Shown piece after piece: positions 34,327 through 64,000 of a stretch of DNA of 64,000 nucleotides. Under the pieces are notes generated by a model. The model ran no database searches, was not told the origin of the DNA, and saw only the letters and a list, made by a program, of their open reading frames with translations. A program made the translations under genes and the position numbers. The first letter of the stretch is position 1, and each line of letters begins with the position of its first letter. The stretch comes from Bacillales bacterium UBA2753 (lineage in GTDB: Bacteria; Bacillota_I; Bacilli_A; RFN20; CAG-826). The stretch spans positions 34,201 through 98,200 of the forward strand of contig DEJH01000041.1 of assembly GCA_002353275.1 (NCBI GenBank), written 5' to 3'.

Positions 34327-34362
34327 AGTATTGTAAACTCTCCTTTTAATAAACGGGTTAAA

Positions 34363-40257: not shown

Positions 40258-40308
40258 AAATATAATTATAGGAAAGGGAATAATAAAAAAGCAAAATAAA
40301 GAATTTAT

Positions 40309-46273: not shown

Positions 46274-46385
46274 ATTGATTCTCGTATGGTTGATTCTATC
46301 ACAAATGCGCTTTCGTTGTATAGAACACGATATTTAAAAAATAACGTGATTCTTATATAACGTACATGGAATTTGTATGTTTTCG

Positions 46386-46415
46386 ATAATAAAAATGATT
46401 GCAATTATGCAATCA
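46386..46415 (-). terminator. intrinsic terminator downstream of the GT2 gene
   Basis: On the minus strand, TGATTGCA-taat-TGCAATCA followed by TTTTTATTATCG. Confidence 0.6.
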
Positions 46416-46439
46416 AGAAATTAAGAAATAGCTATATGA

Positions 46440-47222: not shown

Positions 47223-47291
47223 ATCGGTTCTTTTCAATAATAACAAATTATTGAGTGTCTAACAACACCGTAACATTATAGGAGACAAAGA

Positions 47292-48988
47292 TATAACTTG
47301 AAAAACTAAATTCCGTTTTTAGAATTAAACTTTGTTTTTCGGAATTTTCTCTTACAAATGTTATGTTTTATATGTCTATGCTTCCGTCGAAAGGAGGTCA
47401 TCATATGAAACAAAAGCATATGACAAAAGAAATGCGAGAACGCATTGAAAAAGGTATTAGAGAAGGTGAATTTTTAATAGAAATTGCTAATGCGATCGAT
47501 AAAGACCCTACTACTATATCGAAAGAAGTATACAAACATAGAAATAAGGTTATAAAAGATCCTAAATCCACTGTTGTATCTAGCTTCTGCACAAAGTGTT
47601 CTAATTTTCAAAAATGTGACATTATCCATTTATGCAAAACACAAGGATGCAGCAAAAAATGTAAAAGTTGCTCTAGTCTTAATCCAACATTAATTTGTTC
47701 ATTTTTTATCGAAAACAAATGTAAAAGATTAAGTAGATTTCCTTATGTTTGTAATGGATGTAGTAAAAGATTAAGGTGTCGATTAGAAAAATATGAATAT
47801 GTTCCTATAACCGCTCAAAGGGATTATGAAAAAGAACTTCATGAATCTAGACAAGGATTAAACCTCACTGGTGATGAATTTAAAAAGATTGATGAGGTTT
47901 TCAAGGAAGGATTTGAAAACGGACAATCCATCAATCATATAATCGCTAATAATCCAGAACTTAAGATATCAGTTAAAACAGGATATAACTATGTCAATTC
48001 TGGTAATTTCCAGGTTAAACACAATGATTTACCTAACTATATGAATCATATTCTTAAGAAAAGGAAGATTATTTCTAAAGATTATGAATATCAAGAAAAT
48101 AGAGATATGAACCGTAAAGGAAGGGAATATTACGATTATCTTCTATATATCGACACAAACGATATTGTTTATCACGGAGAACTAGACTGTGTTGGGATAA
48201 CAAAAGATTATGTCGGAGCTTTACTTACTATCATCATTCCTAAATGGAGTTTCTTACTTTTATTTAAGCTAGACATAAAAGATATGGCTCACGTTAATAG
48301 TTGTATCAATTTTGTTTATAAAGCAATGGGTTATGACAAATTCAATAAATATTTAGGGGTTCTTTTAACAGATAGAGGCCCAGAATTTAATGACTATCAA
48401 GGAATTGAATTTGATGAAGATGGGGTTAGAAGATGTAGACTATTCTACTGTGATTCAGGTCAATCCACTCAAAAACCATTTGTAGAAAGAATTAATCGAG
48501 AAATAAGAAGATATGTCTTTAAAGGACAATCGGTTGAGAATTTATCTCAAATAGACTGTGATTTAATCGCTTCTTACATTAACAACATGACTTTAGATGG
48601 ATTAGGCAATAGAACGCCATATGAATTCGCGAAAAGATTTTTAGGTGAAGAAATCCTAGAAAAATTAAATATCGAATACATTAAAGCGAATGATTTAATT
48701 ATCAAAAATATCGATTAAATAAAGCACGAATTAAAAAAATCCAAGTAGAAGGAAGCTACCTGGATAAGCATATGACGGAAGCATAGAACTGAATTTACTC
48801 TTACAACGGAATTTACCGTAATCTTTTCTTATGCTTTCCTAACTCTATTTTTATCGCTATTTTTGTTGCTTTGCAAGAGTTTGAAACACTTAATTCCGTT
48901 TTAATTAAAGAAAAACTCCGTTAAATAGCATTTAATCTTTCAAACAAAATTTTAATTCTATAAACGGAATTTAGTTTTGCAAGTTACA
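47292..48988 (+). mobile_element. IS30-family-like insertion sequence (about 1.7 kb)
   Basis: About 45-bp imperfect terminal inverted repeats (TAACTTGAAAAACTAAATTCCGTTTTTAGAATTAAA vs TAACTTGCAAAACTAAATTCCGTTTATAGAATTAAA on the opposite strand). Multiple subterminal AATTCCGTT/AACGGAATT copies. Flanked by direct 14-bp ATAGGAGACAAAGA (47278-47291, 48989-49002). Confidence 0.6.
47405..48718 (+). CDS. IS30-family DDE transposase with Cys-rich N-terminal extension
   Basis: N-terminal HTH MTKEMRERIEKGIREGEFLIEIANAI. DDE core (GELDCVG ... LTDRGPEF ... ERINREIRRY). C-terminus FKGQSVENLSQIDCDLIASYINNMTLDGLGNRTPYEF matches the IS30 signature. RBS GGAGG. Confidence 0.75.
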   Translation: MKQKHMTKEMRERIEKGIREGEFLIEIANAIDKDPTTISKEVYKHRNKVIKDPKSTVVSSFCTKCSNFQKCDIIHLCKTQGCSKKCKSCSSLNPTLICSFFIENKCKRLSRFPYVCNGCSKRLRCRLEKYEYVPITAQRDYEKELHESRQGLNLTGDEFKKIDEVFKEGFENGQSINHIIANNPELKISVKTGYNYVNSGNFQVKHNDLPNYMNHILKKRKIISKDYEYQENRDMNRKGREYYDYLLYIDTNDIVYHGELDCVGITKDYVGALLTIIIPKWSFLLLFKLDIKDMAHVNSCINFVYKAMGYDKFNKYLGVLLTDRGPEFNDYQGIEFDEDGVRRCRLFYCDSGQSTQKPFVERINREIRRYVFKGQSVENLSQIDCDLIASYINNMTLDGLGNRTPYEFAKRFLGEEILEKLNIEYIKANDLIIKNID

Positions 48989-49085
48989 ATAGGAGACAAA
49001 GAATATACAAAAGAAAAGTTGACCAGCATCAGCTTAGAATCTCACTCAAAAAGGAATATACAATCGCTTTGTCGTAGTAAACTAA

Positions 49086-49646
49086 TTAAATAATATTAGC
49101 TTTATTCGGTAAATATTTTGACAAAACAACAAGTATGTTGCTACAGTTAAGTTCAATGGCTAGCTTGCTTAATCTTTCCTTATCAACTCTGCTAATCATA
49201 TTGTTTTTTGCAAAATCTTTTGCTTCCTGTGTTTTGTTTGTTAAAGTTTCTGGCTCAACTTTTAGAAAAACATTTTCGGCGTTTTTGCAAAACCAAACAA
49301 GTTCATATTCTTTTTCGTTAATGTAGTCACACAAATTGTGAAAGAAAGAACCTTTCTTATACGCTTTTTCAGTCGAATCGGTATCAATGAAATAAATAGT
49401 AACTGTCTTACCACCTTCATTATATGACCTAAACATGTTTTTAAGATTTTTAATTTTGTTCTCGATTTTTTTATTTTTGTAATTTGCTTTGCCACCTAAT
49501 GTAATCCACTGAATGTTAACACCAGACGTGTCAAAAAAGTGTTTAATCACATCGTTAATATAGACAGCATCTGTTTTTTCTTCACTCGAGGTTTCTGCAA
49601 CAAGTAAAAGTTGAAGAGGATTATCCATTATTTGTTCCTCCTCCAA
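49086..49646 (-). CDS. small acidic Toprim-like/DUF4276-like protein partnered with an ABC-type ATPase
   Basis: LLLVAETSSEE and IYFIDTD acidic clusters. Start overlaps the upstream ATPase gene by 26 nt. Confidence 0.45.
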   Translation of the reverse strand: MEEEQIMDNPLQLLLVAETSSEEKTDAVYINDVIKHFFDTSGVNIQWITLGGKANYKNKKIENKIKNLKNMFRSYNEGGKTVTIYFIDTDSTEKAYKKGSFFHNLCDYINEKEYELVWFCKNAENVFLKVEPETLTNKTQEAKDFAKNNMISRVDKERLSKLAIELNCSNILVVLSKYLPNKANII

Positions 49647-50994
49647 AAACTTTTACAAAATCTACAGAACTGATATTAAATGGTGAATTAGGAATCATTC
49701 CATGTCTATATAAATTAACGACTGAATAATTACCATTTCTCTTCCACGAAGTAATTTTTTTGCCGTTGATGAAATCAATTGAATGTTTTAATTTATATTC
49801 ATCCAGTAACTCCATTGGGCCTAAATTATGTGTTGTGAAAATAAATTGTCCATTGGTAAAACCAATAAAATACTCAATTAGTTTGCATAAATATACATCG
49901 TGAATATTGGAATCAAACTCATCAATAAAAACAATTTCTCCATTTTCAATCGCATTTAAATATGGGAATAATGTAATCAATTTCTTTACTCCACTACTTT
50001 CAAATTCAGAAGACACTTCAATATCTTTTGCTTCGCCTTTATAAACAAGTATTTTTTTGCAGTAATATTTCTCTCTGTTTATGGTTTTATCAATTTTAAT
50101 GTCCTTTAAATCTGGCTTAAACACTTTGATAAATTGGCACACCCTCTTGATCTCTTTTTCATATTCCTTAAATTTTTTTAAATCAACTTCATCTATCTCG
50201 TTATCTATTAATACTTTTTGCGTCTTTAAATCGTTCTTTTCTTTATTCATTTGAATCTTATCTATAATTGCAATAATGCGCTCATATGACTCATAGTGTT
50301 GATCTCTTTTGTCAATATAAACATTAATACTAATAGCAAATAATAAAGTATTTAAAATCGCATAGAAAAATGATGTTTCTTTGCCTGTTAAATGTTTCTT
50401 ATAAGAAACTTCTCGCTGTGTACTATAAACAATCAATGATACTAATGCAGATGCCGATTCTAATAAGTTTTTGGTTTCTTTTTCAATGTCGTCTTTTAAA
50501 TGAATAACACGATCATTCAAGTAAACAAAATCTCCATCTTTGGTTTCAAATACTTTTTCTTCGTTATCAATATTTCCCCATGTTTGGCCTTGAACGACAC
50601 TTAATAACTCATGAATAATCATTAAGTTTTCATCTTTTAAAGAATACTCAAGAATATGATGAAAAACATCTCGCGTCCTGCCGTTTTCAATCATCGCAAA
50701 ATATAAATCTATATAAACTTTTTCGATTTGATGATTGATCAATTCTTTAAAGCCGCCAACATAACTCTCGCCTCTTAAGTAATTGGGATTTAATAATGTT
50801 CTCTTATAAATGTCTAAAGTATGTGCTATTGCGGTCTTGCCTTCGCCATTTGTGCCATAAATTGCTTTAACCATTGGTTTTTTACCATATGTGTCATCAA
50901 TCGTTTTATTTGCAAACTGTATTTCAATTGGCTCATCAAGGCACTTAACACCATATGTTTTTAAGTTAAGTAAAACAAATCTGGTATTTTCCAT
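49621..50994 (-). CDS. ABC/OLD-type AAA ATPase (AAA_15/AAA_21-like), 457 aa
   Basis: Walker A IYGTNGEGKTAI. Walker B IVFIDEFDSNIH. H-loop FTTHN. Long helical insert between. Confidence 0.75.
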   Translation of the reverse strand: MENTRFVLLNLKTYGVKCLDEPIEIQFANKTIDDTYGKKPMVKAIYGTNGEGKTAIAHTLDIYKRTLLNPNYLRGESYVGGFKELINHQIEKVYIDLYFAMIENGRTRDVFHHILEYSLKDENLMIIHELLSVVQGQTWGNIDNEEKVFETKDGDFVYLNDRVIHLKDDIEKETKNLLESASALVSLIVYSTQREVSYKKHLTGKETSFFYAILNTLLFAISINVYIDKRDQHYESYERIIAIIDKIQMNKEKNDLKTQKVLIDNEIDEVDLKKFKEYEKEIKRVCQFIKVFKPDLKDIKIDKTINREKYYCKKILVYKGEAKDIEVSSEFESSGVKKLITLFPYLNAIENGEIVFIDEFDSNIHDVYLCKLIEYFIGFTNGQFIFTTHNLGPMELLDEYKLKHSIDFINGKKITSWKRNGNYSVVNLYRHGMIPNSPFNISSVDFVKVFGGGTNNG

Positions 50995-51217
50995 AGTTAA
51001 TCACGCTCCGTATCAATATTATATTATCTTTGATTTTCATATTTCAATATAAAATATACATTTTGTATTTTTTGTATTAACAACATAAAAATTATGTGTT
51101 ATCTTTTATACATGGAATCTAAAAAGCTTCCTCAATTATAGATAATTATAGTCCTTTAACAATCATCGTTGTTGGATAAGGATTATAACAGCAACGATGA
51201 TGTGTGGAATAAATTCC

Positions 51218-51245
51218 GCCATCATATTTTGATGGCTTTTTATAT
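51218..51245 (+). terminator. intrinsic terminator/attenuator in the leader of 51276
   Basis: GCCATC-atatttt-GATGGC followed by TTTTTATATT, 30 nt before the AAGGAGGT RBS. Preceded by a 10-bp stem ATCATCGTTG...CAACGATGAT. Confidence 0.55.
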
Positions 51246-51275
51246 TCAAATAACATAGAAAGGAGGTAACTAAAC

Positions 51276-51524
51276 ATGCAACTTGATTCTGTTTTAGCCA
51301 AAAATCGTCCATCGCCATGGAACGAAGCCGACTATATTGAAGCGTACAAAAAAGTCGTCCCAAGCGCTACTCAAGACGACAATTATGATATTGCAGCTGT
51401 TATAACAAGCGGCGGTGTTAACGGACACGCACTAATGTACTACAGTTACAATAGAAGCCATGATAATCAATATCATATATGTTATCATTTTGTTTCTGAT
51501 AATGAATTAGTTTATTTCATTTAG
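51276..51524 (+). CDS. hypothetical small protein, 82 aa
   Basis: Strong RBS AAGGAGGT 7 nt upstream. No motif. Confidence 0.5.
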   Translation: MQLDSVLAKNRPSPWNEADYIEAYKKVVPSATQDDNYDIAAVITSGGVNGHALMYYSYNRSHDNQYHICYHFVSDNELVYFI

Positions 51525-51755
51525 AAAAAGAAAGCATCCATTAATCGTCCTAACACGCATGATTTATGTGATGTTTTTTTATAAACATTGTTCTAATCGT
51601 GTGCTCTACATTTTTTGTAGCTATTCGAGACAAAGCACCGATGTTATTTTTTGCGCGGTTTCATGTATTTGCAATAAATAAAATATAAAAGGGCTCTATC
51701 TACACGAAAGATCATAAAGCCAATATTTCATAAGTGTTTGTCTAATTAAAGGGCT

Positions 51756-51985
51756 TCACTTAACACCATTATATTTCTTCCTACTATATAAAGCGTATCT
51801 GAATACATATTTCCAGCTCTTAAGCCAATTTAACTTTTGAGTGTTCTTATAAGCAACATGCATATGTTTAAGTAATTTAAACTTATTATAGTTTTTACTT
51901 CCTGGATGGATAACATATGTCATTAAGACAGATTGGTTTCCATATGCCTTAATATTTCTAACCAGAAGACGTAGTCTTCATGTCT
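51756..51985 (-). pseudogene. 3' fragment of a GT2 glycosyltransferase gene, paralogous to 58745-59491, with internal frameshift
   Basis: Translates to RHEDYVFWLEILRHMETNLS*, then after a frameshift ...KLLKHMHVAYKNTQKLNWLKSWKYVFRYALYSRKKYNGVK*. The intact gene reads HEDYILWLSIL...GFNWLKSWMLVFRYALYSKKKYRDVK. About 80% nt identity. Confidence 0.65.
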
Positions 51986-52017
51986 TTACATTTAGTATTA
52001 TGAGCAATAAATAAAAA

Positions 52018-52164
52018 GGGTCAAATCAATCAACCAATAGTACCAACGCATAAAATACGTTGTACTAACTCGACCCTATAAGGGCCATTACTCCACCGAC
52101 TCTCAAGAGCCATAGGTGGGTTGACAACCGTGATCAATCACTTTAGCTACCCTTAAAAGGGTCC
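52018..52164. other. GC-rich, highly self-complementary 150-bp element of unknown nature
   Basis: GGGTCaaatc...GTACCAACG-cataaaata-CGTTGGTAC...GACCC, then CCACC-gactctcaagagccatag-GGTGG, ending AAAAGGGTCC. Far above local GC content. No ORF. Confidence 0.3.
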
Positions 52165-52341
52165 TTATATTCTTTTGAAGACAGATTATCTTGAATCATG
52201 TCCTCTTTTTTGTTTCGTATATATTTCTGGACTTTCTTTGTATCAAGACCCGCTGTTGATACGTAGAAACCTTTCGTCCAAAAATAAAATATTGTTTTTT
52301 ATAACAACCTTTATAAAAGTGGCTTGGCTCAACTCATTCAT

Positions 52342-53139
52342 TTAATACATATATTCCAAAGAAGATAATGGATCTTCCTGTTCAATTAATATCTTGTCTT
52401 TATATTTAAGTCTATATTTAGTAGGAACATTAATGTCCTCTTTGATATATCTAATCATGTTCCCTTTAGTTGGTGCTTTTAAGTTATGACCACCTAAAGA
52501 AGATATATCTAATTCAAAAATGAATTTTCCTTTTTTGATTATTATCTTATCTTCTTTTTTAGATAATATCTTTCCTCCATTATATGTACAGAAACGATAT
52601 TCATAATCTTTGCCTTTGATGAAACAAAGTAAACCAGTGAAGTTAATAAATCCTAATAATGGAATAGTTGCTATCGCTAATGTTACTGTACACTCCTCAG
52701 TTACTGAGTTATACCAGATATATTTGGTAGGGAAGGAATGACCACTATCACCTTCGATATATCCTAAAGAATTACTAAATGTGATTTTCTTATTCTTATT
52801 TAAAGCAAGCACTCCATTAACTCTATGATACATGGAATATATTTCATGTTTACATTCCATAGGAAGAATAGAGAAAGGTCCCATTACTTTCTTAGATAAT
52901 GGATGTAGTTCTCCTAATGTAAGATTTCCTTCTAATGAAATATCATCTTCATGAATATTAATACTAATAACATTATTATTTATATCTACTGATTTAGTGT
53001 CTTTAACAAAATATCCTTTAGTGGGTGTTACTAACTGCAACATATCTCCCTCGTTAGCATGAGAGACAATTAAAGCAAAAGTATATCCATCATTACTGAT
53101 AAATTTATAGTATTTACCAAAGAATCTATTTTTCTTCAT
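52342..53139 (-). CDS. hypothetical protein, 265 aa
   Basis: ORF with mixed beta-rich sequence. No motif recognised. Confidence 0.55.
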   Translation of the reverse strand: MKKNRFFGKYYKFISNDGYTFALIVSHANEGDMLQLVTPTKGYFVKDTKSVDINNNVISINIHEDDISLEGNLTLGELHPLSKKVMGPFSILPMECKHEIYSMYHRVNGVLALNKNKKITFSNSLGYIEGDSGHSFPTKYIWYNSVTEECTVTLAIATIPLLGFINFTGLLCFIKGKDYEYRFCTYNGGKILSKKEDKIIIKKGKFIFELDISSLGGHNLKAPTKGNMIRYIKEDINVPTKYRLKYKDKILIEQEDPLSSLEYMY

Positions 53140-53279
53140 GTAGTCTTGATTTTATTATACATGAATTGTCTTTCGCCGACTGTAATAATGCCTAATTTTA
53201 TTTGGCACAAATCATTCCGGCTGTAACAACCTTTGTTAATCAATGAAGAATAAATGACCTTATAATCATTAGCCAAGAA

Positions 53280-54077
53280 TTATTGTATCTTTTGAGTAAA
53301 ACATTCATTTAACAAATCATAATGAAAGACTTGATCAGCAATAATGAACGTAATAACAAAAATCAAAAGCAGCCCAATACAAGTAAATGTTAAAATTAGT
53401 TTTCCTTTTTCAGATAACAAGCGATTTTTTATCCAAAGATAGATTTTTGATTCGCTCCCATAATCAAATTCTTTAATGGCTTCAATTGGCAAATCACCTT
53501 TCCAAAACTTTAGGCTTCCTTTTTTATTGTCAAAATCTATTTCTATTTTTTGTGCGTAAAACATCATAGTGTCATCATTCATTGGCTTAATGGGCTTCAA
53601 TAAGATTCCACCATCGCTTGTTGGGATATAAATACACAGCCCTTTATCTTTGCCTGCCACGACAATGCTGTATCGTTGTTGAGGTATCTTTTTCCTTTCA
53701 TTATATTCAACGCCATTAGCTTCATATCCATCAAAAACTTTGCTGAGAGGAGTTCTGTTAAAAACTATGTTTTGCATCCACAACATATAGCTTCTTGCTC
53801 TTTGAGAAAAATAAAAATAGTCTAGGAAAAAGTAAATGATCGCCACAATATTCCCTATAATTTGAAAGATAAGTTGAAAAACATATTCGGGTTTTGCAAA
53901 AGAGAAAAGAAAATTAAATACAGTAAACTCAATTAAAAATATGGCACGGACAATTTTCTTAAAAAGAAAATAATTTTTCAACTTAGCATCTTTCATTATC
54001 CCATCAATGGCAAAAAACGCTAGTTCTTCTATGAGCGTCAGCAGAAAGAAAATTGAAGTGATAATCGTTGTGTACAT
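53280..54077 (-). CDS. hypothetical membrane protein with C-terminal PH-like region, 265 aa
   Basis: Three N-terminal TM helices and a C-terminal TM. No catalytic motif. Confidence 0.55.
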   Translation of the reverse strand: MYTTIITSIFFLLTLIEELAFFAIDGIMKDAKLKNYFLFKKIVRAIFLIEFTVFNFLFSFAKPEYVFQLIFQIIGNIVAIIYFFLDYFYFSQRARSYMLWMQNIVFNRTPLSKVFDGYEANGVEYNERKKIPQQRYSIVVAGKDKGLCIYIPTSDGGILLKPIKPMNDDTMMFYAQKIEIDFDNKKGSLKFWKGDLPIEAIKEFDYGSESKIYLWIKNRLLSEKGKLILTFTCIGLLLIFVITFIIADQVFHYDLLNECFTQKIQ

Positions 54078-54500
54078 GTGTCAGTTATCCTTTTAATAAC
54101 TCAATTATAATCTAAATCAACTTGCACTTCTCTCTTTTTGATAGATTTATAGGCATATAAGGAATAAGCATCATCATGCACGTTAAAGATATAATTATGT
54201 TGGACAAGTAATACCCGAGCAATAATGGTACTGCAATCAGTTTGCATATTTCTGCTTACGGTCTGCATATTATTTGGTCATTTATATGCAAACAATTTAT
54301 ACTCACTAAACACTTTTGCGATATTTAGTAAAACTGGTTAGTAGAAAAGTGACGTTAAATCTAAGTTATAGCGTAAACTTTTGTATTTTTTTCAAATTAT
54401 TACGCTTTAAAACCCATTTTTCGTGATTCGCATGAATAATCTAAAAAAACATAACAAAATCGCATGTTATGTATTTTTTGTAACCCCTACATTTACTACA

Positions 54501-54646
54501 TGCAGAAAAAAGAATACCAACAATTAATTAAAAACATCAAAGATAAATTAATAAAACTCCAATCATCTATATCAGTGTACGCTTTTGGTAACACAAGAGG
54601 AGGGATGGGCATTAAAAAATTAGAAGACTTAGATATATGGATTTGA
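54501..54646 (+). pseudogene. possible remnant of a minimal nucleotidyltransferase (N-terminal GS/DxD region only)
   Basis: VYAFGNTRGGMGIKKLEDLDIWI resembles the MNT motif LFGSxARGxxxxxSDIDL, but only 48 codons long. Confidence 0.25.
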
Positions 54647-54864
54647 TAACGGTTACATGAAATTATATTAATTGTATGATTGTAGTTGACAATAGGTGCC
54701 AAACATTAATAAATTATTGATACAAGAGATATCCTTTATAGGATGAAGAGGTGCCGAGTGATCGACGCCTTTTTAATTTTTATTCACCAAATTTATCATA
54801 CTATTTTGCCTAATCTATTTTCTAAATAAGCAACAAAAAGGAATAAGTCTCAGCTAAAAACAAA

Positions 54865-56355
54865 TCAGTATTTTAAAAAAATATAGTTAATAAATTCTAT
54901 TAGTGAAGTCTTTGAATCTAAACTATCATTAAACAATATGCTATCTACATCAATAGACTTCTTAAAGTTTGTTATTTTGATTAAATAATTTAACTCGTTT
55001 TGGATATATTCAACTATGCGATATTCTGAGAACAATTTAGAATGTCCTTTAATTTGATTATTATCGTTAATTTCATAAATTATTGGAAACAAGTTCACAA
55101 TATAATACATAAGCGAATAATAGAGTTTAAGGAATTTTCTTTTTCCTTCTTTTGTTTTACCGTAATATTCATCAAGATTATTCTTAAAATAATTAACAGT
55201 ATCACTCCACTGATGAATATTGGTTCTTTTGCCTGATCTAATCTTTTTACTACTATAATTAGGCGGCTCAATTCCAATATTATAATGCTCATTAAAGTAG
55301 TCACAAACAGAAACAATGAACAACGAAACGTTTGTTGAAACATTAGCACCATGTTCCAATGCTTCTTGTTTTGCCTCAGCGGTAAATATTTGTGATAAAT
55401 TATCTTTAAATGCTGAGCCTTCACGAATAATAAAGTCAGGCGTTATATCCTCAATATTTTTTTCGAATAGCCATTCCAAATCGAAGAGATGATTAGTTGA
55501 ATTAGCTTTGGTCCATACATCTTTCAAAAATGGATAATATTGTCTGAGGGTATAGGATCTTAATACCTTTGAATTAAAATACCTCATTCCATTTACAAAT
55601 ACTTTTTGTTCATTACTTAGAGACAATTTTTTGTTACTAATTTCTTTAGTTTCTGCATCTATTAAATCAGAAACTAGATTCATTTTAGAACAAACATCAT
55701 TAATGTTTTTTTCGGGCGCTTTCTCTAAGCTCTTATCTGGCAAATAAATATAAACTCTCTTGTCAAGGCTTGCTGGTTTAGAAGATATGTCATATTGAAT
55801 TAAATCAAAATGAGGAGGTGAGGCACTTATTATTGATGGATAATTCTCCTCCTTTTTTAACACAATATAAACAAACGCTGTATTTTGATTAGATTTATAC
55901 GTGTAACTTTTGTATTTTAAATAATCGCTAGCGAGATTCAATAAAACTAATTTATTCTCCATTTTATACTCAATAAATAATTGCGTTGTTTCATCGCTGC
56001 CAAAAACATTTTTTACCTGGATATAGCCATCTACATAACATTTATCCCATTGAGTAGTTCTTGTTTTTAAACTGGTTGTGCTTCTAAGGGAATCAAATTC
56101 AGACATCGTTAGTTTGTTTTTAAGTTCAATTGGAAATTCATTAACGGTCAATTGCGTTGTATATCCCTTATTTTTTAATAAACAGCTCAACATAGCCGTT
56201 GAAAATCCTGCAACCGTTCTTTCGTTTGTAAAAAATGCACGGTTATCAGTTTGATAATCAAATATTTTTTTATTTATATTAAATCTTAAAGCATATTTTT
56301 TGATGCTTTCATCTAGTTCAAAAATTATGCTATCTAAATCGGTCTTTGTTATCAT
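54865..56355 (-). CDS. hypothetical protein, 496 aa; N-terminal region has a PD-(D/E)xK-like D...EYK pattern
   Basis: VDGYIQVKNVFGSDETTQLFIEYK fits hD-x14-ExK. Remainder unrecognised. Own promoter region (660-bp gap upstream). Confidence 0.6.
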   Translation of the reverse strand: MITKTDLDSIIFELDESIKKYALRFNINKKIFDYQTDNRAFFTNERTVAGFSTAMLSCLLKNKGYTTQLTVNEFPIELKNKLTMSEFDSLRSTTSLKTRTTQWDKCYVDGYIQVKNVFGSDETTQLFIEYKMENKLVLLNLASDYLKYKSYTYKSNQNTAFVYIVLKKEENYPSIISASPPHFDLIQYDISSKPASLDKRVYIYLPDKSLEKAPEKNINDVCSKMNLVSDLIDAETKEISNKKLSLSNEQKVFVNGMRYFNSKVLRSYTLRQYYPFLKDVWTKANSTNHLFDLEWLFEKNIEDITPDFIIREGSAFKDNLSQIFTAEAKQEALEHGANVSTNVSLFIVSVCDYFNEHYNIGIEPPNYSSKKIRSGKRTNIHQWSDTVNYFKNNLDEYYGKTKEGKRKFLKLYYSLMYYIVNLFPIIYEINDNNQIKGHSKLFSEYRIVEYIQNELNYLIKITNFKKSIDVDSILFNDSLDSKTSLIEFINYIFLKY

Positions 56356-57014
56356 TGCTTATTTTCTCCTAAATGTTATCAACGAATTTATTTTCAAATA
56401 TAGCAAGGCAGCAATGCCTTACTGATATATTAAACTTAAATATAATTTAAATTCCTTATTATTAATATTGTTGCATTTAATTATGGTTATACAAGATATA
56501 TTTTAAGAAACATACTTTATATAGTATTTATAACGCTCGTCAAGAGTGCTTATGTTGACGTTTGCAATCCTAATAGAAGATATCTTAACAAGTTTTAAAA
56601 AGACTTGATGAATAGATGGACAAACAATACGCTAATCAGCAATATCTGTACAAAAATACATAGATATACCTTCAATTTTATTTAGTGTTTGATTAAATTA
56701 TTCACTATGTTTCTGAAAATCTAAATTTGCATTAACTTTTGCGTTAGTAGACGATTCACCATATAAAGGAAGTAGTTAAACATTAAGCATAGCGACTTAA
56801 TAGAGTTATACCCTTACACTATAATAGTCATTAAGATTATCTAATCCAACAACCTCATCATTTGTTGTCCCCAAAAGAGTTTGCATAAGCAAACAGATGT
56901 AAGTAATAGTCCTAGAAATAGAATAAAAATGTAGGTATTGCCAAAAGCATTATTTTTTGATTTATTAGTTCAGCAAACTGTCTTTCGTCAACTATATTAA
57001 TACAAAAAAATAAA

Positions 57015-57767
57015 CTAAAGCATTTTTATTTCATTTCTGGTGTTGTTGAGAATGATAGATATTTTAGATGTGTCGAGAATCTTAAAATTAAAAGTATCAG
57101 AACTAACATTGTACTTATAAACGACATCAGGGAAACAAATGTATATGATATCAAACATATATTTTTCTGAAACATTTAAATTATGAAAAAGTTCCTTTTC
57201 GATATAACCCTGCATCATTTGTGCCATTTCTTCTTGATAATCAACTCCCTCAGAAATAATTGCATAGTCAATATAGACACCAACAATGTTGTTAGGTAAC
57301 AGTTCGTAGTTATCATTGAGTTTGCGTATTTTTTCATTAATCTTACTTACAATCATATGAGAATTAAACTCATCGCTTGGTACAAAACCAATTTGCCCTG
57401 CAAGCACCAAATCGCCATTTGATCTTTGCAACAAAACTATTATCCCGTTTTGCACGCTTGAAATATAAAAAACAGGGACACCACTTGCATCCTGATATAC
57501 TCTGTCTTTATAGAATCCTAGGATGTTCAAAAAGCCCTCTGGAATGTCTTCTAAATTCTTGTTCATATATTTTCGTAGTAGAGAATTTAAGGTGTTCTGT
57601 GTATCAGAGGCGGCCGTAACAATTTCTAACCCAACTGAATCAGATTTGAAATCCGGACTTTCGTTTTTAATTAAACTATTAAAAGATGGGTCAAAAGTTA
57701 ACTGTATATAGTTTTTAGCAAGAAGCTCGTAAAAAGTTTTCCAATAGTCATGATGTGTTTTATCCAT
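57015..57767 (-). CDS. hypothetical protein, about 250 aa
   Basis: ORF 68 nt downstream of the TIR-like gene. Start chosen at MDKTHHDYW. No motif. Confidence 0.55.
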   Translation of the reverse strand: MDKTHHDYWKTFYELLAKNYIQLTFDPSFNSLIKNESPDFKSDSVGLEIVTAASDTQNTLNSLLRKYMNKNLEDIPEGFLNILGFYKDRVYQDASGVPVFYISSVQNGIIVLLQRSNGDLVLAGQIGFVPSDEFNSHMIVSKINEKIRKLNDNYELLPNNIVGVYIDYAIISEGVDYQEEMAQMMQGYIEKELFHNLNVSEKYMFDIIYICFPDVVYKYNVSSDTFNFKILDTSKISIILNNTRNEIKML

Positions 57768-57865
57768 GTTTTTAAACCTCTTAAATTTTTGCACCAATTG
57801 ATTATTCTTTGAAATTCCGTTAAACGCCGCTCTTTTGTACGCTTGTAGAACTTGTGAAAATAACC

Positions 57866-58693
57866 CTAAAAAATATTCAAATCAATATCAAGACCTGACG
57901 CTTTCATATTTTTTGCTATTTTTAACTGCCAAATCTCGTCATTCGTCATTCGGACATATATTACTCCGCTAATATCACCCGGCGTTTCTATATCATCGTT
58001 TTCTAAAACAGCACAAACCTTTTCTCTTCCTAGTGTGCCAATCATAAAGCCATGCTCAAAAACCACATTTTGACGAGCGCGATATTTTGCTTCATCTTGT
58101 TTATTTACTTCATAGCCAATATCACATTTTGTATACAACACAATACAAAAACAAACGTCACCAGAATAGTTCTCAATCTTCTCGATAATGGTTTTACCGC
58201 CATCCGGTTCTTTGAATAAAACAATTGGATTATACCCAAGTTTCCTAACAAGATTCTCTATCGATTCCAACCTATTGGTGTCGTGACCATGCACAATGAA
58301 AACATTTTTAGAATTATTTTTTCCAATAAATGTGTTTTTAGAAACTAATGCATTTTTCTCGCTAAGGGCTTTTTTTACGAACTCCTCAGTAACGTCCTTT
58401 GAATTTCCTCTGCCATTAATTACAGTGTCTTCAGATATACCCAAAGCGGCAATGCCAGCAGAGTAAAATCTATTTCGTATGCTATGCATTTCGTTCTCAA
58501 TTGTATCTTTTGTTTCACATATTTTAAATCTATCAATGCAGCTTTTATTAACGATATAGCCATTAACCAAAAAATCCTGTTCAGATATGTATAATTTAGT
58601 CAATTCTTCTACTTTCTCAAATGACAAATCACACAAAAAAGAGGTTGTATCCTTCTTGTGGTTGGAATGTTTAACTAAAATGTGATAATACAT
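57866..58693 (-). CDS. TIR-like nucleotide-binding domain protein (CAP12/PycTIR-type TIR_like) with unknown N-terminal domain, 275 aa
   Basis: C-terminal NVFIVHGHDTNRLESIENLVRKLGYNPIVL ... YRARQNVVFEHGFMIGTLGREKVCAVL ... PGDISGVIYV matches the TIR_like (COG4271) pattern. Confidence 0.7.
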   Translation of the reverse strand: MYYHILVKHSNHKKDTTSFLCDLSFEKVEELTKLYISEQDFLVNGYIVNKSCIDRFKICETKDTIENEMHSIRNRFYSAGIAALGISEDTVINGRGNSKDVTEEFVKKALSEKNALVSKNTFIGKNNSKNVFIVHGHDTNRLESIENLVRKLGYNPIVLFKEPDGGKTIIEKIENYSGDVCFCIVLYTKCDIGYEVNKQDEAKYRARQNVVFEHGFMIGTLGREKVCAVLENDDIETPGDISGVIYVRMTNDEIWQLKIAKNMKASGLDIDLNIF

Positions 58694-58744
58694 ATTTATT
58701 CCTCCTTAAATACAAATCGTAATCTTCAAAAAATAATACAATGT

Positions 58745-59491
58745 CTACTTAACATCCCTATATTTCTTTTTACTATATAGAGCGTATCTAAATACCAACA
58801 TCCAACTCTTCAGCCAATTAAATCCTTGTGATTCATGGTATACACGATACATCGATTTAACTAATTTAGATTTGTTAGAGTTTTTGCTATTTTGATGAAT
58901 GACATAAGTTGCTAATACTTTATGGTTACCTTTGGCAACTATTCCTCTTTTAAGAATAGATAACCACAAAATGTAGTCCTCGTGCCTATCATATGTTTCA
59001 TCAAAGAAAACATCACCAATAACTTCTCTATCATACATAGTGGTTAGACAAGATAAAGGATTACCTCTTAATGCTTTTTTATAATTAGTTTCTTCAGGTA
59101 CAAAGAAATCAGTACATGTATGTTCTGCTTGTCTTCTATATCCCGCTGAAATAAGTGGCCCATTATCTTTAATAAATTCTAATTGGCATTCTAAATAATT
59201 AGGATCTAATAAATCATCAGAATCTAAAAATGTGATATATCTGCCAGTCGCGTGTTTTAATCCGATATTTCTCGCTACTGCAGATCCACCATTTTTAGGT
59301 GTTTGAAGCACCACTATTCTTTCATCATCTTCTACTAACTCTTTTATAAATTCAAAAGACCCATCAGTAGAACAGTCATCCACAATAATCCATTCCCAAT
59401 CTTTAAATGTTTGAGAAAGGACACTATCAAAAGTAGCCTTAAAGACTCGTTTGCAGTTATAAGATGGGGTGATGATGGTGATTAAAAACAT
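58745..59491 (-). CDS. GT2-family glycosyltransferase
   Basis: ITIITPSYNCKRVFKATFDSVLSQTFKDWEWIIVDDCSTDGS and FLDSDD motifs. Confidence 0.85.
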   Translation of the reverse strand: MFLITIITPSYNCKRVFKATFDSVLSQTFKDWEWIIVDDCSTDGSFEFIKELVEDDERIVVLQTPKNGGSAVARNIGLKHATGRYITFLDSDDLLDPNYLECQLEFIKDNGPLISAGYRRQAEHTCTDFFVPEETNYKKALRGNPLSCLTTMYDREVIGDVFFDETYDRHEDYILWLSILKRGIVAKGNHKVLATYVIHQNSKNSNKSKLVKSMYRVYHESQGFNWLKSWMLVFRYALYSKKKYRDVK

Positions 59492-59515
59492 AATAATTTA
59501 TCTCTTTGTTTAAAT

Positions 59516-62119
59516 TTAATCATCTTCTTTATCAAATGAAGGTATAACTACTTCAGATGCTCTCCATTTTGATTTATAAAAGCAAGGAACAAATTTCAAA
59601 ACCATATCTTCTTTTAATAAATGATAGTCAAAATCCAGATTGTAAAAACCGAAAGTAAAATATCTGGTGTTTTTACCTTTTATTGATCCAAACATTTTTT
59701 CTGTATCAATGGTTTTCAAATATCCAAATTCAAATGATTCAAATTTAAAGTTGAGAGTTTTAATGTCATAATCTGTTAAAAAGGATTCGTTGGTTTGATT
59801 TATGAAACGAATTTGATCTTCTGGTGTTTTTTCAAAAATAAAAATATATTTAAAATACTTTCTTGTAAACTCTTTCCCAATTTCAACTGCATCTTTATTA
59901 TTTACAGAGAGTACTAAGAAATCGTATATTTTCCTCAATCCTTTATAAAAACCAATTGTGTAAAAATCAGTCCTGACAGTATCAATATAGTTGATTAATT
60001 TAATTAATTTATTTTTTTTGGAACTAAAGTTTGATGGCTCTTCGTCTATTATTCTAAATTCGAGATCCACATATTCATTAATCATTTTAGATCTAAAACC
60101 ATCATCAATTTCGCTTGTTGGCTTCAGCAATTCAAATATAATGGCTTCCGCGTCTTTAAAATTCTTCTCGTATTTAAGAATTCTAGCATAATTAGCCTTA
60201 AAATAAGGGTTATCCGGAATGTACTCTAATGCGATTTTAATATGACGTTTTGCCTCGTCATAATTACCTACCTGATTATTTAAGAAAATAGAATAAATAC
60301 TCTCAATGTATGGAGCATTTGTTTCGTCGGCCTGTTCTAAAGCAATTTCAAAACATTCTCTAGCTTTATCAATAATGTAATTTTTTGCATAACAATAACC
60401 TGCAACTTTATATAAATCAGCAAATGAAGGAGAGGCTTTAGATGCTTTGTCAAACCAATCATCCATTGCATCAATATCCTGCTTGTTGGACGAATCAATA
60501 AAGTTGAGCATATAAATAGTGGCTATTTTTTCACTAGAGGTTTTTGGATTTAACGATAGAGGCTTATTTTTGCTTGTAATTTTATCATTTGTATAAAGAT
60601 TTTCAATTATACTTTCTAACTTATTGCTGCGATTAAGATAATCATTAAAAGAAATATCCTTTTTATTTATTTTCACCGATAAATATTTTCGTGCAAATTC
60701 TGGAACGCTATAAACACCGCGATCTATTTGCTGAAGAAAATTACAAGCACACAGTTCGTTTACGGCTAGTGCAGCCGATTCATAATCTTTATCGTATATA
60801 TAAACTATTTCAGCCATACCAAAATCTTTTTGTTTAATCATCATAATTGTTAAAACCGATTTGGCAGGTTCTGATAGTTTTTCAAACACATTTGATAAAC
60901 AATACTCGACTATCTCATCTTGATTTTTAATAACAAAATCTGGATTATTGCCTTTCCCGACATTAATTATGAACCATTTAATACAAAGCGGAGAACAATA
61001 AAGCTTTTCAGTATAATTATCAACTTCCTTATTACTAATATTTTTTAATAAGGTAACATCATAAACATCAACAAGTCTCCTAAAATAAAAATTGGCTTCA
61101 TCTTTTGTAAACGGATCTAAGGGAATTCTGGTTTCAAATTCCCCGATTCCAATCCTAGAAGTTATTAGAATTTTTGATCCATCAGGTACTTCTTCAAAAA
61201 GCTTTCGAACATCATTTGTATTAATTGTTTCAAGATTATCCAAAATTAGAAGCGTTTTAAAAGCGCCCATATAAAATAGCAAGTCATCGATTGCTGAAAC
61301 TTTTTCTTTATTTAGGATTTGATTTCTTTTAATACAATCATCGAAAGATTTGACATAGTTTTTTATATTTTTAAATTCGCCATCAACCAACGATTTTGTT
61401 TTTAATGATGTCCATAACACTTTCTCAAATGGAAAATCGTCCTCATCAATTAAATCCGAAATTAAACTAAGAACAATTGATGTTTTACCAATTCCTCCAT
61501 CTCCGATAATTGTTATAATCGGATACCGTCCATATAATTTTCTTTTTATATCTTTTTTCTTTTCTTCTCTCCCAATAAAACCAGTATCATCGTAATCTAC
61601 CAACGGCAAATTATTTTCGATCTGAGTTTGAATGTAAAGCAAGTCAAAATTTGGAGTTTTTTCATAGAAAACATTTGGATTTTTATCAATTAGTTCTATA
61701 CTGTTGTTTAAATGAGAAAAGCCAATAATAGTGTTAAAATTACTATAATCTCTTACAAATGATAATATTATCCCTTCTTCATCATGCTTGATTGGCCTGG
61801 AATGCATAACCTTGTTTCGAATAGGCGTGATTTCTTTTAATTTGGAGATTATTTTTTTTGTAATTACCGGATCTATATTATTTATTTTAAAATGTTGGTT
61901 TAATATTTCGACATAATCCCCAAAGTCTAAATACATAACGATGGAAGAATGGTCGTTTTTATCAATTTCTTTATTTGCTGCTCTTTCAAGTGCTTTTTCA
62001 GAGTAACCAAAAATATTGACATTGTTTTCAATAATGTATTCTCTCATATCGAGTTCAATTGAAGAAATATACTCAAACAACAAATTTCTTCTTAATTTAT
62101 AGTTCAAAAAAGTTGGCAT
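59516..62119 (-). CDS. STAND (NB-ARC-like) NTPase with C-terminal TPR repeats and an N-terminal HEPN-like domain, 867 aa
   Basis: Walker A ITIIGDGGIGKTSIVLSL. Walker B KTLLILDNLE. TPR-like helical repeats from about residue 560. N-terminal PIRNKVMHSRP (Rx4H). Confidence 0.75.
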   Translation of the reverse strand: MPTFLNYKLRRNLLFEYISSIELDMREYIIENNVNIFGYSEKALERAANKEIDKNDHSSIVMYLDFGDYVEILNQHFKINNIDPVITKKIISKLKEITPIRNKVMHSRPIKHDEEGIILSFVRDYSNFNTIIGFSHLNNSIELIDKNPNVFYEKTPNFDLLYIQTQIENNLPLVDYDDTGFIGREEKKKDIKRKLYGRYPIITIIGDGGIGKTSIVLSLISDLIDEDDFPFEKVLWTSLKTKSLVDGEFKNIKNYVKSFDDCIKRNQILNKEKVSAIDDLLFYMGAFKTLLILDNLETINTNDVRKLFEEVPDGSKILITSRIGIGEFETRIPLDPFTKDEANFYFRRLVDVYDVTLLKNISNKEVDNYTEKLYCSPLCIKWFIINVGKGNNPDFVIKNQDEIVEYCLSNVFEKLSEPAKSVLTIMMIKQKDFGMAEIVYIYDKDYESAALAVNELCACNFLQQIDRGVYSVPEFARKYLSVKINKKDISFNDYLNRSNKLESIIENLYTNDKITSKNKPLSLNPKTSSEKIATIYMLNFIDSSNKQDIDAMDDWFDKASKASPSFADLYKVAGYCYAKNYIIDKARECFEIALEQADETNAPYIESIYSIFLNNQVGNYDEAKRHIKIALEYIPDNPYFKANYARILKYEKNFKDAEAIIFELLKPTSEIDDGFRSKMINEYVDLEFRIIDEEPSNFSSKKNKLIKLINYIDTVRTDFYTIGFYKGLRKIYDFLVLSVNNKDAVEIGKEFTRKYFKYIFIFEKTPEDQIRFINQTNESFLTDYDIKTLNFKFESFEFGYLKTIDTEKMFGSIKGKNTRYFTFGFYNLDFDYHLLKEDMVLKFVPCFYKSKWRASEVVIPSFDKEDD

Positions 62120-62295
62120 ACTAACCCTTTATTTATTTTATTATTATATTTCCTATGCTACACATGCAACAAATTGTTATTAAAAATTGTTTTTAAAAAT
62201 CATTAACCAAAAACTATAAATTTTTATTGACATCAATTTGTATTGTAGTAATATATAGTCAATCGAAGAACCTATTCGTCGTCAAGAGGGATGGG

Positions 62296-64000
62296 TTATT
62301 TTTTTGCATTTAATTCCAAATACATTCTTTTGGCATAATTGTCAGTCATGCCACTAATAAAATCAATTATGAGTCTCATTTTAAGATATGCAACCATTTG
62401 TTTATTTGCGCCATCAATCTCAATAAAAAAATTATCAATCAATTTTTCAGGAATCAACAACAATATTTTATTCCTATAATCTCTGTCTTTTATTCCTTTT
62501 GAATTCTTAATTGTTTTATTTCTTTTATTTATTTTTGCATCAATAATAGCATCAAAAAACTCGCTCAATAGAAAGTTTAAAATTTTGTTTCCTTGAATTT
62601 CGTTAATAATAATTAACTTTGACGAAAATACTAAATCTGTTTTTATCTTGCCAAGTAATTTAATTATTTCGTGATATTGAGAAAAGTGGAGTAAATGAAA
62701 ATCCTCGCCAACCCCATTAACGACTATATGTTTATAAACGTTTAATCCAGTTTGAGGTATTGTTCCAATTTGATGGTAATTAAGTGAGGCGATTATATTT
62801 TCTCTCAATTCACTCAATAAAGGCCTGATTGTTATTTCGAAAGCCTCATGTCGATTTTTGTTATTCTTTATAGCTTTCGAAAATTTATTATCTAGCGAAT
62901 TATAAAAATTTGAGCAAATTGCATTCTTGTTGTTTTTGAAATAAAAAGCAAAATCTTCAAAAGATAAAACCTGCTTATGAATCGAATCTTCCAAATCCGA
63001 AAACAAATATGCGATATCATCTGCGGCCTCCAATACACAAGCAAAAGGATTCCTTTTGCCGTATATGAATACACCCAAATTATACAAATCATCTATGACG
63101 CTTTGTTCAGACAAAAAGAACCCAATTTTATTATTTTTTCCATTAGAAGAATGTGGGTATTTAATTATTGCGCCAAGTACTCCGGCCGACAAAGATGCGC
63201 CTCTCTTGTTTTTAAAAGGCATTAATTTTGAAGCAATTCTTAAAGATTGCGCATTTCCATCAAAAGAAATTAAATCATTAAAATAACTTGGGTATTTAAT
63301 TCCGATGCCATATTTGTTTAAAAAATCACCCTTGCTTTTAAAGAACGAATTAATGGTTTGTTCACCGGCATGACCAAAAGGCGGATTGCCAATATCGTGA
63401 AGCACACCAATAGTTCTACATAAAGAAATAGAATCTTGTAAATCAAACGTTAAAAATTTGTTGTTTATTGAAGCAGAATTAATAAAAACTTCCAACATTG
63501 AATTGCCTACTATTTGTTCAATGATAGCCGATACCTCAAGCGAATGAGCCAATCTTCTTCTTGAGTGATCAAATTCATCCATTAAGAAAAGTTGGGTTTT
63601 GTCTTGCAATCTACGGAATGTAGAAGAGGAAATGACCCGCAAATAATCAGATTCAAAATATGATAGTTTTTGTTCTCTATTACGAATATAGACACTATTG
63701 AACTGCTTTCTTATGCTCCATAATGCACCAGATGCATACTTATATATGTCAGCATAATTATTTGTTTGGACACAATTAATGAAATTATCTAAATTTTTTG
63801 CAGAATATGATGACGAGAATTTTGATCTTAAAAATACAAAGATGTTAATTAGATTTTTATATTTTTCAAAAAAATATTTAACATTGAGATAATTATTATT
63901 GTGAAGAGCAATCCTTAAGACGTGTTTTGCAGCGCAAAAAGCATTGATATCTATACTATTTTTTGTGATCTTAGAATGTGAAAAATCATCAATGTATGCT
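62296..64000 (-). CDS. dGTPase-family HD-domain triphosphohydrolase with N-terminal extension (5' end beyond window)
   Basis: STFRRLQDKTQLF, HSRRRLAHSLEV and LHDIGNPPFGH motifs. The reading frame stays open with no stop from 63642 up to 64000. The track start at 63640-63642 is a TTG. Confidence 0.7.
   Translation of the reverse strand, partial: AYIDDFSHSKITKNSIDINAFCAAKHVLRIALHNNNYLNVKYFFEKYKNLINIFVFLRSKFSSSYSAKNLDNFINCVQTNNYADIYKYASGALWSIRKQFNSVYIRNREQKLSYFESDYLRVISSSTFRRLQDKTQLFLMDEFDHSRRRLAHSLEVSAIIEQIVGNSMLEVFINSASINNKFLTFDLQDSISLCRTIGVLHDIGNPPFGHAGEQTINSFFKSKGDFLNKYGIGIKYPSYFNDLISFDGNAQSLRIASKLMPFKNKRGASLSAGVLGAIIKYPHSSNGKNNKIGFFLSEQSVIDDLYNLGVFIYGKRNPFACVLEAADDIAYLFSDLEDSIHKQVLSFEDFAFYFKNNKNAICSNFYNSLDNKFSKAIKNNKNRHEAFEITIRPLLSELRENIIASLNYHQIGTIPQTGLNVYKHIVVNGVGEDFHLLHFSQYHEIIKLLGKIKTDLVFSSKLIIINEIQGNKILNFLLSEFFDAIIDAKINKRNKTIKNSKGIKDRDYRNKILLLIPEKLIDNFFIEIDGANKQMVAYLKMRLIIDFISGMTDNYAKRMYLELNAKK

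Follow-up and report, generated by a model that had tools for sequence, protein, structure and literature searches.

A predicted four-domain STAND protein in a Bacillales genome

We analyzed a 64,000-nucleotide stretch of DNA from Bacillales bacterium UBA2753 (GenBank assembly GCA_002353275.1, contig DEJH01000041.1, positions 34,201 to 98,200; hereafter, the window) and focused on a gene that is predicted to encode an NLR-like STAND NTPase. The gene is a single open reading frame (ORF) of 867 aa, with the coordinates including the stop codon (Table 1), and an identical protein (P0001) is encoded on the 116-kb gut-metagenome contig of which the window is part. An earlier note, made from the letters of the window, had described the product as an antiviral, Avs-like STAND protein of three parts, namely, a HEPN-like N-terminus, an NB-ARC-like P-loop NTPase and TPR-like repeats, and had pointed to a glycosyltransferase gene as its odd operon partner. 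Our analysis supports this reading with three amendments: the protein appears to consist of four domains, it is Avs-like but matches no PADLOC model of the named families Avs1-5, and the glycosyltransferase is incidental. The motifs quoted in that note are present in the translation, with PIRNKVMHSRP starting at residue 99, GDGGIGKTS at residue 206 and LILDNLE at residue 291.

In total, 180 homologues were found, of which 120 are listed with domain annotation, and an alignment of 80 sequences was used to assess invariance. A full-length AlphaFold2 (AF2) model built on the 80-sequence alignment (mean predicted local distance difference test score (pLDDT) of 88; predicted template modeling score (pTM) of 0.67) begins with an all-alpha segment spanning residues 7-150, which a linker connects to an alpha/beta NTPase (~181-335); after this come a helical and winged-helix segment (~336-485), ~14 paired helices (~486-785) and a five-stranded beta unit (797-858). 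The architecture predicted from the sequence and the model is thus HEPN, NB-ARC, TPR and a degenerate cold-shock domain (CSD). Scans for promoters and terminators returned counts near those expected from shuffled sequence and were uninformative in DNA of 30% GC.

Table 1. Features of the STAND gene and its surroundings, with positions given in the window and residues in the encoded protein
Feature	Position	Strand	Basis
Whole gene, predicted HEPN-NB-ARC-TPR-CSD architecture	59516..62119	-	ORF list; 180 homologues
Presumed promoter region, 176-bp AT-rich intergenic stretch upstream of the gene	62120..62295	-	sequence, by inference
All-alpha Swt1/Abi2-clade HEPN domain, predicted RNase effector, residues 1-150	61670..62119	-	profiles, hhalign, AF2, invariant residues
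Rx4H motif of HEPN, R101-N-K-V-M-H106, residues 101-106	61802..61819	-	translation; invariant in 80 sequences
Linker, residues 151-180, with invariant N170-L171-P172 and D-[YF]-D-D motif	61580..61669	-	family alignments; pLDDT 66-79
Nucleotide-binding domain of the NB-ARC module, residues 181-335	61115..61579	-	Pfam NB-ARC, invariant columns
Walker A/P-loop GDGGIGKT, residues 206-213	61481..61504	-	translation
Helical ARC/winged-helix region, residues 336-485, with SPLCIKW 376-382 (GxP-type motif)	60665..61114	-	AF2 secondary structure; Foldseek alignments to CED-4, ZAR1, NRC4
TPR-like alpha-solenoid, predicted sensor, residues 486-785	59765..60664	-	TPR_19, TPR_2 and TPR_16 matches; paired helices in AF2 model
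Cold-shock-like OB domain, degenerate in this clade, residues 790-860	59540..59752	-	AF2; family PF00313
GT2 glycosyltransferase	58745..59491	-	Glycos_transf_2 1.3e-35
PDC-S35 candidate single-gene defense protein, CAP12/Pycsar-type TIR at residues 130-250, downstream of the STAND gene	57866..58693	-	PADLOC 7.9e-74; Pfam PF10137 2.4e-34
dGTP triphosphohydrolase, directly upstream of the STAND gene, runs off the window	62296..>64000	-	PADLOC dGTPase 7e-61; TIGR01353 1.6e-72
Four uncharacterized ORFs	57015..57797; 54865..56355; 53280..54077; 52342..53139	-	
Orphan GT2 3' remnant	51759..51974	-	61% aa identity to GT2
AAA_21 ATPase (457 aa) and overlapping 186-aa partner	49086..50994	-	pair also in L084:7075-8944
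451-aa protein with N-terminal HTH_38	47363..48718	+	
Second GT2 gene	46440..47246		
YobI-like P-loop NTPase, 1202 aa	34363..37971	-	5.5e-78
Abi_2 (AbiD/F-type HEPN) protein	33017..33694	-	30.9 bits vs gathering score 25.6

The central module is an NB-ARC-type STAND NTPase

The middle of the protein (residues 185-322) matches the Pfam family NB-ARC (PF00931) above its gathering score (30.4 and 23.5 bits, respectively), and the same family is precomputed on nearly all homologues. The nucleotide-binding domain carries the expected string of motifs, namely, FIGRE (residues 181-185), Walker A (206-213), Walker B (LLILD294-N295) and T320-S321-R322. In the 80-sequence alignment, the P-loop residues G206, G208, G209, G211 and K212 are invariant, as is D294 of Walker B, in which the second acidic position is occupied by N295. 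Further invariant residues belong to the hhGRE-type motif (G183 and R184), the TTR-like sensor-1 (T320, S321 and R322) and the GxP-type motif (P377 and W382). The definitions of these STAND motifs (hhGRExE, the sensor-1 arginine or TTR-like RNBS-B, and GxP) are those reportedly given by Leipe and colleagues in 2004 and in the plant NB-ARC literature.

When the whole model was compared with the PDB using Foldseek, the best matches were to a STAND-TPR protein (6mfv, 1.2e-11), the plant receptor ZAR1 (6j6i, 2.4e-8) and EfAvs5 (9jap, 1e-7), followed by NRC4, SAMD9, CED-4, Roq1 and Avs4 (8dgf). Because the Pfam match is above the threshold, the motifs are invariant and the fold matches are to STAND, NLR and Avs proteins, the core is an NB-ARC-type STAND NTPase, in agreement with what had been read from its P-loop.

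The N-terminal domain resembles HEPN RNases of the Swt1/Abi2 clade

HEPN domains are marked by an Rx4-6H motif placed where a core helix ends and the loop to the next one begins, by a polar residue after the arginine and by an upstream Ex3[KR] motif (PMC3710099). All of these hallmarks have counterparts in the N-terminal domain. In the AF2 model of the domain (pLDDT 89), the Rx4H motif lies at the end of the helix 84-105 and the start of a loop, with the next helix spanning residues 112-128, and E22-L-D24-M-R26 represents the upstream acidic motif of the Ex3[KR] type. The family alignments show no variation at R101, N102 and H106, nor at E22, D24 and D65. Of the 120 homologues, 116 have RN/RDxxxH at the corresponding position and 3 have RKxxxH, with the remaining one being N-terminally truncated; the Rx4H motif is therefore present in all 119 N-terminally complete homologues. 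A match to this motif would be trivial on its own, and it is this conservation across homologues that makes it significant. Moreover, because the three homologues that seemingly lacked RNxxxH actually carry RKxxxH, the effector appears to be fixed as HEPN across the family, and we rejected effector swapping as an account of these apparent exceptions.

Profile comparisons point to the same clade. Among 31 diverse N-termini of the family, 15 match HEPN_Swt1 (PF18731; best E value of 9.3e-6), 4 match Abi_2, and 23 match the HEPN part (~202-292 of 305) of NCBIfam NF053863, the DS-11 CBS domain-containing anti-phage protein. Residues 18-114 of the protein under study match the same HEPN part with 32.8 bits (3.9e-8). 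Furthermore, hhalign comparison of the family profile with an Abi_2 protein encoded in the window itself (Table 1) yielded an E value of 4.2e-4 (34% probability) and placed the hallmark motifs in register, aligning IELDMR with LEESYR (Ex3R) and IRNKVMHSRP with LRNVIGHNRT. Collectively, the family profile matches, the in-register motifs, the conserved residues and the position of the motif in the model support the assignment of the N-terminus, previously described as HEPN-like, to a Swt1/Abi2-clade HEPN domain with intact catalytic residues, a predicted RNase.

A TPR solenoid is followed by a predicted degenerate cold-shock domain

TPR-like repeats had also been proposed, and one of them, TPR_19, was matched above threshold (residues 618-666, 27.1 bits against 25). 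The layout of three modules suggested on this basis holds as far as those modules go; the count of three does not, because a cold-shock-like domain at the C-terminus (~790-860) had been overlooked. In the AF2 model, this block consists of five beta strands (797-805, 810-815, 820-824, 840-848 and 851-858), with pLDDT values mostly of 87-93 over residues 790-860. The cold-shock domain family PF00313 is precomputed at the extreme C-terminus of 58 of the 120 homologues listed, and a profile of the family C-termini matched UNR (1e-18), CspA (1.2e-12), CspB (4.5e-12) and YB-1 in the PDB. One homologue of 1034 aa (P0199) carries three tandem CSDs at its C-terminus, recalling the multi-CSD protein UNR, the top PDB match of the profile.

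In the protein under study and its five closest relatives, the nucleic acid-binding motifs have degenerated, with K-M-F810-G-S-I in place of the RNP1 motif (K-G-[FY]-G-F-I) and Y820-F-T-F823 in place of the RNP2 motif (V-F-V-H-F or h-F-F-H). Relatives at 47% identity retain GYGFI and FFH. Alignment by hhalign of the CSD of this clade with CspA is weak (4.7% probability) and in register. What supports homology to CSDs is thus the alignment of the family and the fold of the AF2 model, not the matches of the clade itself, and the C-terminal domain is predicted to be a degenerate, CSD-derived one. It could serve as a sensor of single-stranded nucleic acid, as a tether to the RNA substrate, or be a relic in this clade.

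The four-domain family is widespread and patchily distributed

A scan with a degenerate pattern, using one genome per species, identified at least 357 loci encoding homologues. These belong to Clostridia, Bacilli, Actinomycetota (many Streptomyces), Alpha- and Gammaproteobacteria, Bacteroidota and Myxococcota, as well as Cyanobacteria, Planctomycetota, Chloroflexota and Acidobacteriota. An exhaustive hidden Markov model search with the profile of the N-terminal domain retrieved 1633 representatives at 50% identity with E <= 1e-3, including 189 with E <= 1e-30; nearly all either begin with the domain and measure ~850-900 aa or are fragments at contig ends. A candidate for the HEPN domain in another context (P0297) was rejected as a scrambled fragment, probably resulting from misassembly. 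Four plasmids carry a homologue, annotated merely as 'NB-ARC domain-containing protein', and no homologue was found in the phage genomes searched.

In all-pairs comparisons, the identity was highest in the NTPase (0.45), lower in the CSD (0.24) and lowest in the TPR region (0.22). A conserved NTPase combined with variable TPR and CSD regions is the pattern expected of a switch with a diversifying sensor. The family has a fixed four-domain architecture, is patchily spread across many phyla and is often found amid defense genes. PADLOC models matched among 150 immediate neighbors of relatives include, as a plain list of matches, those of Shosta, PARIS, Lamassu, AbiE, Avs1, DRT, type II restriction-modification and several PDC candidates. 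One homologue (L067), with 33% identity over residues 3-441, is encoded on a 4984-bp contig (JAEOTE010000179.1) of a Candidatus Heimdallarchaeota metagenome-assembled genome (MAG); it reaches the end of this short contig and may represent contamination or recent transfer.

A likely role as a stand-alone anti-phage sensor with RNase output

Considering the four-domain anatomy, the conserved catalytic and NTP-binding residues, the single-gene organization, the defense neighborhood and the patchy spread, we regard it as likely that the protein is a single-protein, stand-alone STAND/NLR-type anti-phage (abortive infection) sensor, in which oligomerization triggers a HEPN RNase. HEPN RNases require two Rx4H motifs juxtaposed at a dimer interface. 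They are metal-independent (PMC3710099), and Avs effectors are activated by ligand-induced oligomerization (PMC13581612). Combining the need for paired Rx4H motifs with the ligand-induced oligomerization of Avs and NLR proteins suggests the following scheme. At rest, the protein would be an autoinhibited monomer. A phage-derived ligand, either a protein fold, as in the characterized Avs, or single-stranded nucleic acid captured through the CSD, would bind at the TPR/CSD sensor end and release the NB-ARC switch, leading to ATP-dependent oligomerization. The single HEPN domains of neighboring protomers would then be juxtaposed to form active, metal-independent RNase sites, and cleavage of cellular and viral RNA would stop translation and abort the infection. 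If this mechanism holds, bacterial NLR-like immunity would gain an NB-ARC-type receptor with RNase output. The family also lends itself to testing, being encoded by one gene for ~870 aa, widespread across at least 357 species-level loci and equipped with clear catalytic residues.

Several observations weigh against this interpretation. Taken alone, the protein matches HEPN_Swt1 (PF18731) with only 17.3-17.4 bits (E = 0.0056-0.006), below the gathering score of 27.5, and its match to Abi_2 (E = 0.03) is likewise sub-threshold. None of the PADLOC models of Avs1-5 was matched at E <= 0.01. In the CSD, the second phenylalanine of RNP1 is replaced by serine and the histidine of RNP2 by phenylalanine, and the CSD of this clade, searched alone, had no match in Pfam or the PDB; because these RNP1 and RNP2 residues are lost, nucleic acid binding by this particular protein is doubtful. 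Finally, no experimental study of the HEPN-NB-ARC-TPR-CSD family was found in the literature.

That a STAND protein carries a CSD at its sensor end raises the question of what the domain is for. CSDs are binders of single-stranded nucleic acid, and the domain is fixed at the extreme C-terminus across the family, in three copies in some members, with CspA, CspB, UNR and YB-1 as its matches in the PDB. With the effector and the switch unchanged, the CSD rather than the TPR solenoid, then reduced to a scaffold, might therefore sense single-stranded phage DNA or RNA, such as intermediates of replication or transcripts present in abundance, and trigger oligomerization. The text of the 2026 STAND survey in Nature contains 0 mentions of CSD or OB-fold sensors, and describes some Avs families as being without a protein trigger (PMC13581612). 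However, the aromatic and histidine residues of RNP1 and RNP2 are partly lost in this clade, phage proteins are bound, in all characterized Avs families, by sensors of the kind represented here by the large variable TPR solenoid, and the CSD could equally tether the RNase to its RNA substrate. We therefore hold this version to be possible, though rather unlikely. The bolder claim, that this is the first nucleic acid-sensing prokaryotic STAND, with one or more CSDs capturing single-stranded phage DNA or RNA, switching on the NB-ARC oligomer and firing the HEPN RNase, appears to us quite improbable. If it were true, nucleic acid sensing would be performed on the same NB-ARC chassis as that of plant R proteins and Apaf-1, with a homologue on the Heimdallarchaeota MAG contig.

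A role outside immunity was considered as well, either as a housekeeping or regulatory STAND protein (a regulator of the MalT/GutR/AfsR type), or as a factor of RNA metabolism or stress that applies its CSD and HEPN domains to host RNA. CSDs are indeed typical of cold-shock and RNA-chaperone functions, and some homologues are named 'LuxR family glucitol operon transcriptional activator' by JGI. However, domain scans detected neither a helix-turn-helix (HTH) nor another output domain for DNA binding, and a nuclease output is what the invariant catalytic HEPN residues point to. In addition, the spread is patchy, spanning many phyla and including plasmids, with variable, defense-rich neighbors and without a conserved operon. 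In the window, the gene is flanked by a dGTPase gene and by a region with a TIR defense gene. The N-terminus does resemble a HEPN nuclease, and the protein was not found to cluster with housekeeping ATPases. We consider a non-immune function very unlikely and retain the anti-phage sensor as our preferred interpretation.

Relationship to known STAND and HEPN systems

The architecture itself has been noted before and does not represent a novel type of defense system. Anantharaman, Makarova, Burroughs, Koonin and Aravind listed in 2013 a combination of a Swt1-like HEPN domain, a STAND ATPase and TPRs, with or without an S1 or cold-shock OB domain, exemplified by Npun_F6454, MED222_16016, Desac_1927 and a Bacillus cereus protein (gi 229028907) (PMC3710099). 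The protein described here has the same domain order and a HEPN domain predicted to be of the same clade, and belongs to this group, which was defined by computation. The 2013 description consists of a table entry and one sentence, without family delineation, neighborhood analysis, structure or experiment. The present member differs from that description by its degenerate CSD and its placement inside a polysaccharide locus.

The family resembles Avs (AVAST) proteins in its order of modules, with the effector at the N-terminus, the STAND NTPase in the middle and a TPR-like sensor toward the C-terminus, all encoded in a single gene and found in defense islands; the solved structures of Avs4 and Avs5 also appear among its Foldseek matches. 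The Avs-like layout proposed earlier thus stands; assignment to one of the families Avs1-5 does not, given that their PADLOC models were not matched. The only PADLOC matches of the protein are to weak candidate models (PDC-M34B, 3.9e-4, and PDC-M01A, 4.4e-3). Unlike in Avs, the NTPase scores as NB-ARC (the AP-ATPase clade), the effector is a fixed HEPN domain rather than being swapped, as it is in many Avs families, and there is an additional C-terminal CSD. A survey of 589 STAND clades names Avs7-24 (Lee et al. 2026, PMC13581612).

The closest named match to the N-terminal domain is the HEPN region of DS-11, an experimentally validated single-protein anti-phage system composed of CBS and HEPN domains, in which mutation of the catalytic HEPN residues abolished defense (DefensePredictor, PMC13092281). 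The effector domain alone is shared, however. In DS-11, CBS domains control the HEPN domain, and STAND, TPR and CSD modules are lacking, whereas the protein described here lacks a CBS domain and its 32.8 bits are well short of the 260 required for an equivalog. RNase L (ankyrin sensor, pseudokinase and KEN/HEPN) and animal HEPN-NACHT proteins of the CXorf38 type follow the same logic, whereby a ligand-binding repeat sensor leads to oligomerization, HEPN RNase activity and antiviral RNA decay (PMC3710099); however, their sensor and switch modules are unrelated, so that the likeness amounts to analogy or domain reuse rather than orthology. Finally, ZAR1, NRC4, Roq1, CED-4 and Apaf-1 share the NB-ARC module (Walker A and B, the TTR-like T-S-R and a GxP-like motif), with Foldseek E values of 2.4e-8 to 1e-5, but these plant and animal proteins have coiled-coil, TIR or CARD effectors instead of HEPN and LRR or WD40 sensors instead of TPRs and a CSD.

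The adjacent glycosyltransferase gene is not a conserved partner

The gene following the STAND gene encodes an ordinary GT2 (Glycos_transf_2, 1.3e-35) that is TuaG-like (4.8e-59, below the equivalog cut-off) and starts exactly 24 bp past the stop codon, as previously noted. Given the shared strand, the 24-bp gap and the lack of a terminator-like site between the two genes, their co-transcription in this contig is plausible, and the pair could be envisaged as a functional two-gene operon in which the glycosyltransferase would, for example, modify a surface receptor or nucleic acid for defense. The comparison with relatives points the other way. A GT2 gene was adjacent to the STAND gene in none of the 76 relatives examined, including those with 78% and 75% identity, and the sole other GT2-like matches in those loci lie ~7-8 kb away (L005 and L078). 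In tblastn searches against 80 GTDB-derived loci, none of the window neighbors recurred beside a homologue. All-versus-all clustering of 688 neighbor ORFs likewise identified no conserved partner gene: the largest neighbor cluster was present in 6 of the 76 loci, and none occupied a fixed position. In the 78%-identical relative (L084), the STAND gene is followed by an uncharacterized gene of 190 aa and then by AAA_15/AAA_21 genes, and in the 75%-identical relative (L085) by a different gene again. The absence of a recurrent neighbor argues for a single-gene system.

Furthermore, the window contains the 3' end of a GT2 gene without the rest (Table 1). This remnant comprises the last 72 codons, shares 61% amino acid identity with the intact GT2 (residues 177-248) and ends at the same stop position. 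A comparable remnant, with 84.5% nucleotide identity to the intact gene, follows the AAA_21 pair in L084 (9096-9462). No att-like identical core was found between the GT2 gene and the 3' remnant, with the copies sharing just ~70% nucleotide identity. The presence of such remnants in both the window and L084 points to turnover or exchange of cassettes, with the 3' ends of GT2 genes left as recombination scars. Together with the many other polysaccharide genes in the window and upstream on the parent contig, this leads us to regard a functional operon as extremely improbable. GT2 was accordingly rejected as a partner of the STAND protein: the adjacency had been described correctly, and the GT2 is a chance neighbor from a polysaccharide locus.

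Defense genes are interspersed in a surface-polysaccharide locus

The STAND gene lies within a surface-polysaccharide locus that extends from ~28 kb (28670..64000) past the window end, including L001:1-7224. The locus encodes a UDP-GlcNAc 2-epimerase, an FnlA-like epimerase, two GT1, a TupA-like ATP-grasp protein and two GT2, and is followed upstream on the parent contig by two acyltransferase_3 genes and more GT1 and GT2 genes. At least 6 defense-type genes or cassettes are interspersed in it, among them the genes for Abi_2, the YobI-like NTPase, the AAA_21 pair, PDC-S35, the STAND protein itself and the dGTPase (Table 1), so that the locus appears to act as a hotspot of defense gene insertion. 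The odd pairing of a STAND gene with a glycosyltransferase gene would then result from defense cassettes inserted into a polysaccharide locus, and polysaccharide loci of this Gram-positive-like gut bacterium can apparently host such cassettes.

The dGTPase encoded directly upstream of the STAND gene is 576 aa long on the parent contig and scores below the NCBIfam 'anti-phage dGTPase' cut-offs; it may be either a defense or a housekeeping enzyme. No cyclase gene was found near the gene of the PDC-S35 TIR protein. The AAA_21 ATPase and its 186-aa partner likely form a two-gene defense cassette, and the corresponding pair in L084 is ~72% identical in nucleotides across the partner gene and the neighboring 3' part of the ATPase gene. 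The genes for the Abi_2 protein, a 211-aa ORF (33017..34326 for the two together) and the YobI-like NTPase adjoin each other on the minus strand.

Between the PDC-S35 gene and the GT2 remnant, four ORFs had no significant match in Pfam or PADLOC, and the first two of those in Table 1 had none in NCBIfam either. One of the four showed a weak tocopherol cyclase-like match, another is seemingly membrane-embedded, and near-identical copies of the 496-aa protein are present on several other contigs. All four are possible uncharacterized defense genes. A 451-aa protein with an N-terminal HTH_38, encoded between polysaccharide and defense genes, may be an IS30-like transposase. Features that point to a low-GC Gram-positive host include the GC content of ~30%, the TuaG-like GT2 and genes for surface proteins with Listeria-Bacteroides repeats and InlB B-repeats, as well as for an M6 peptidase.

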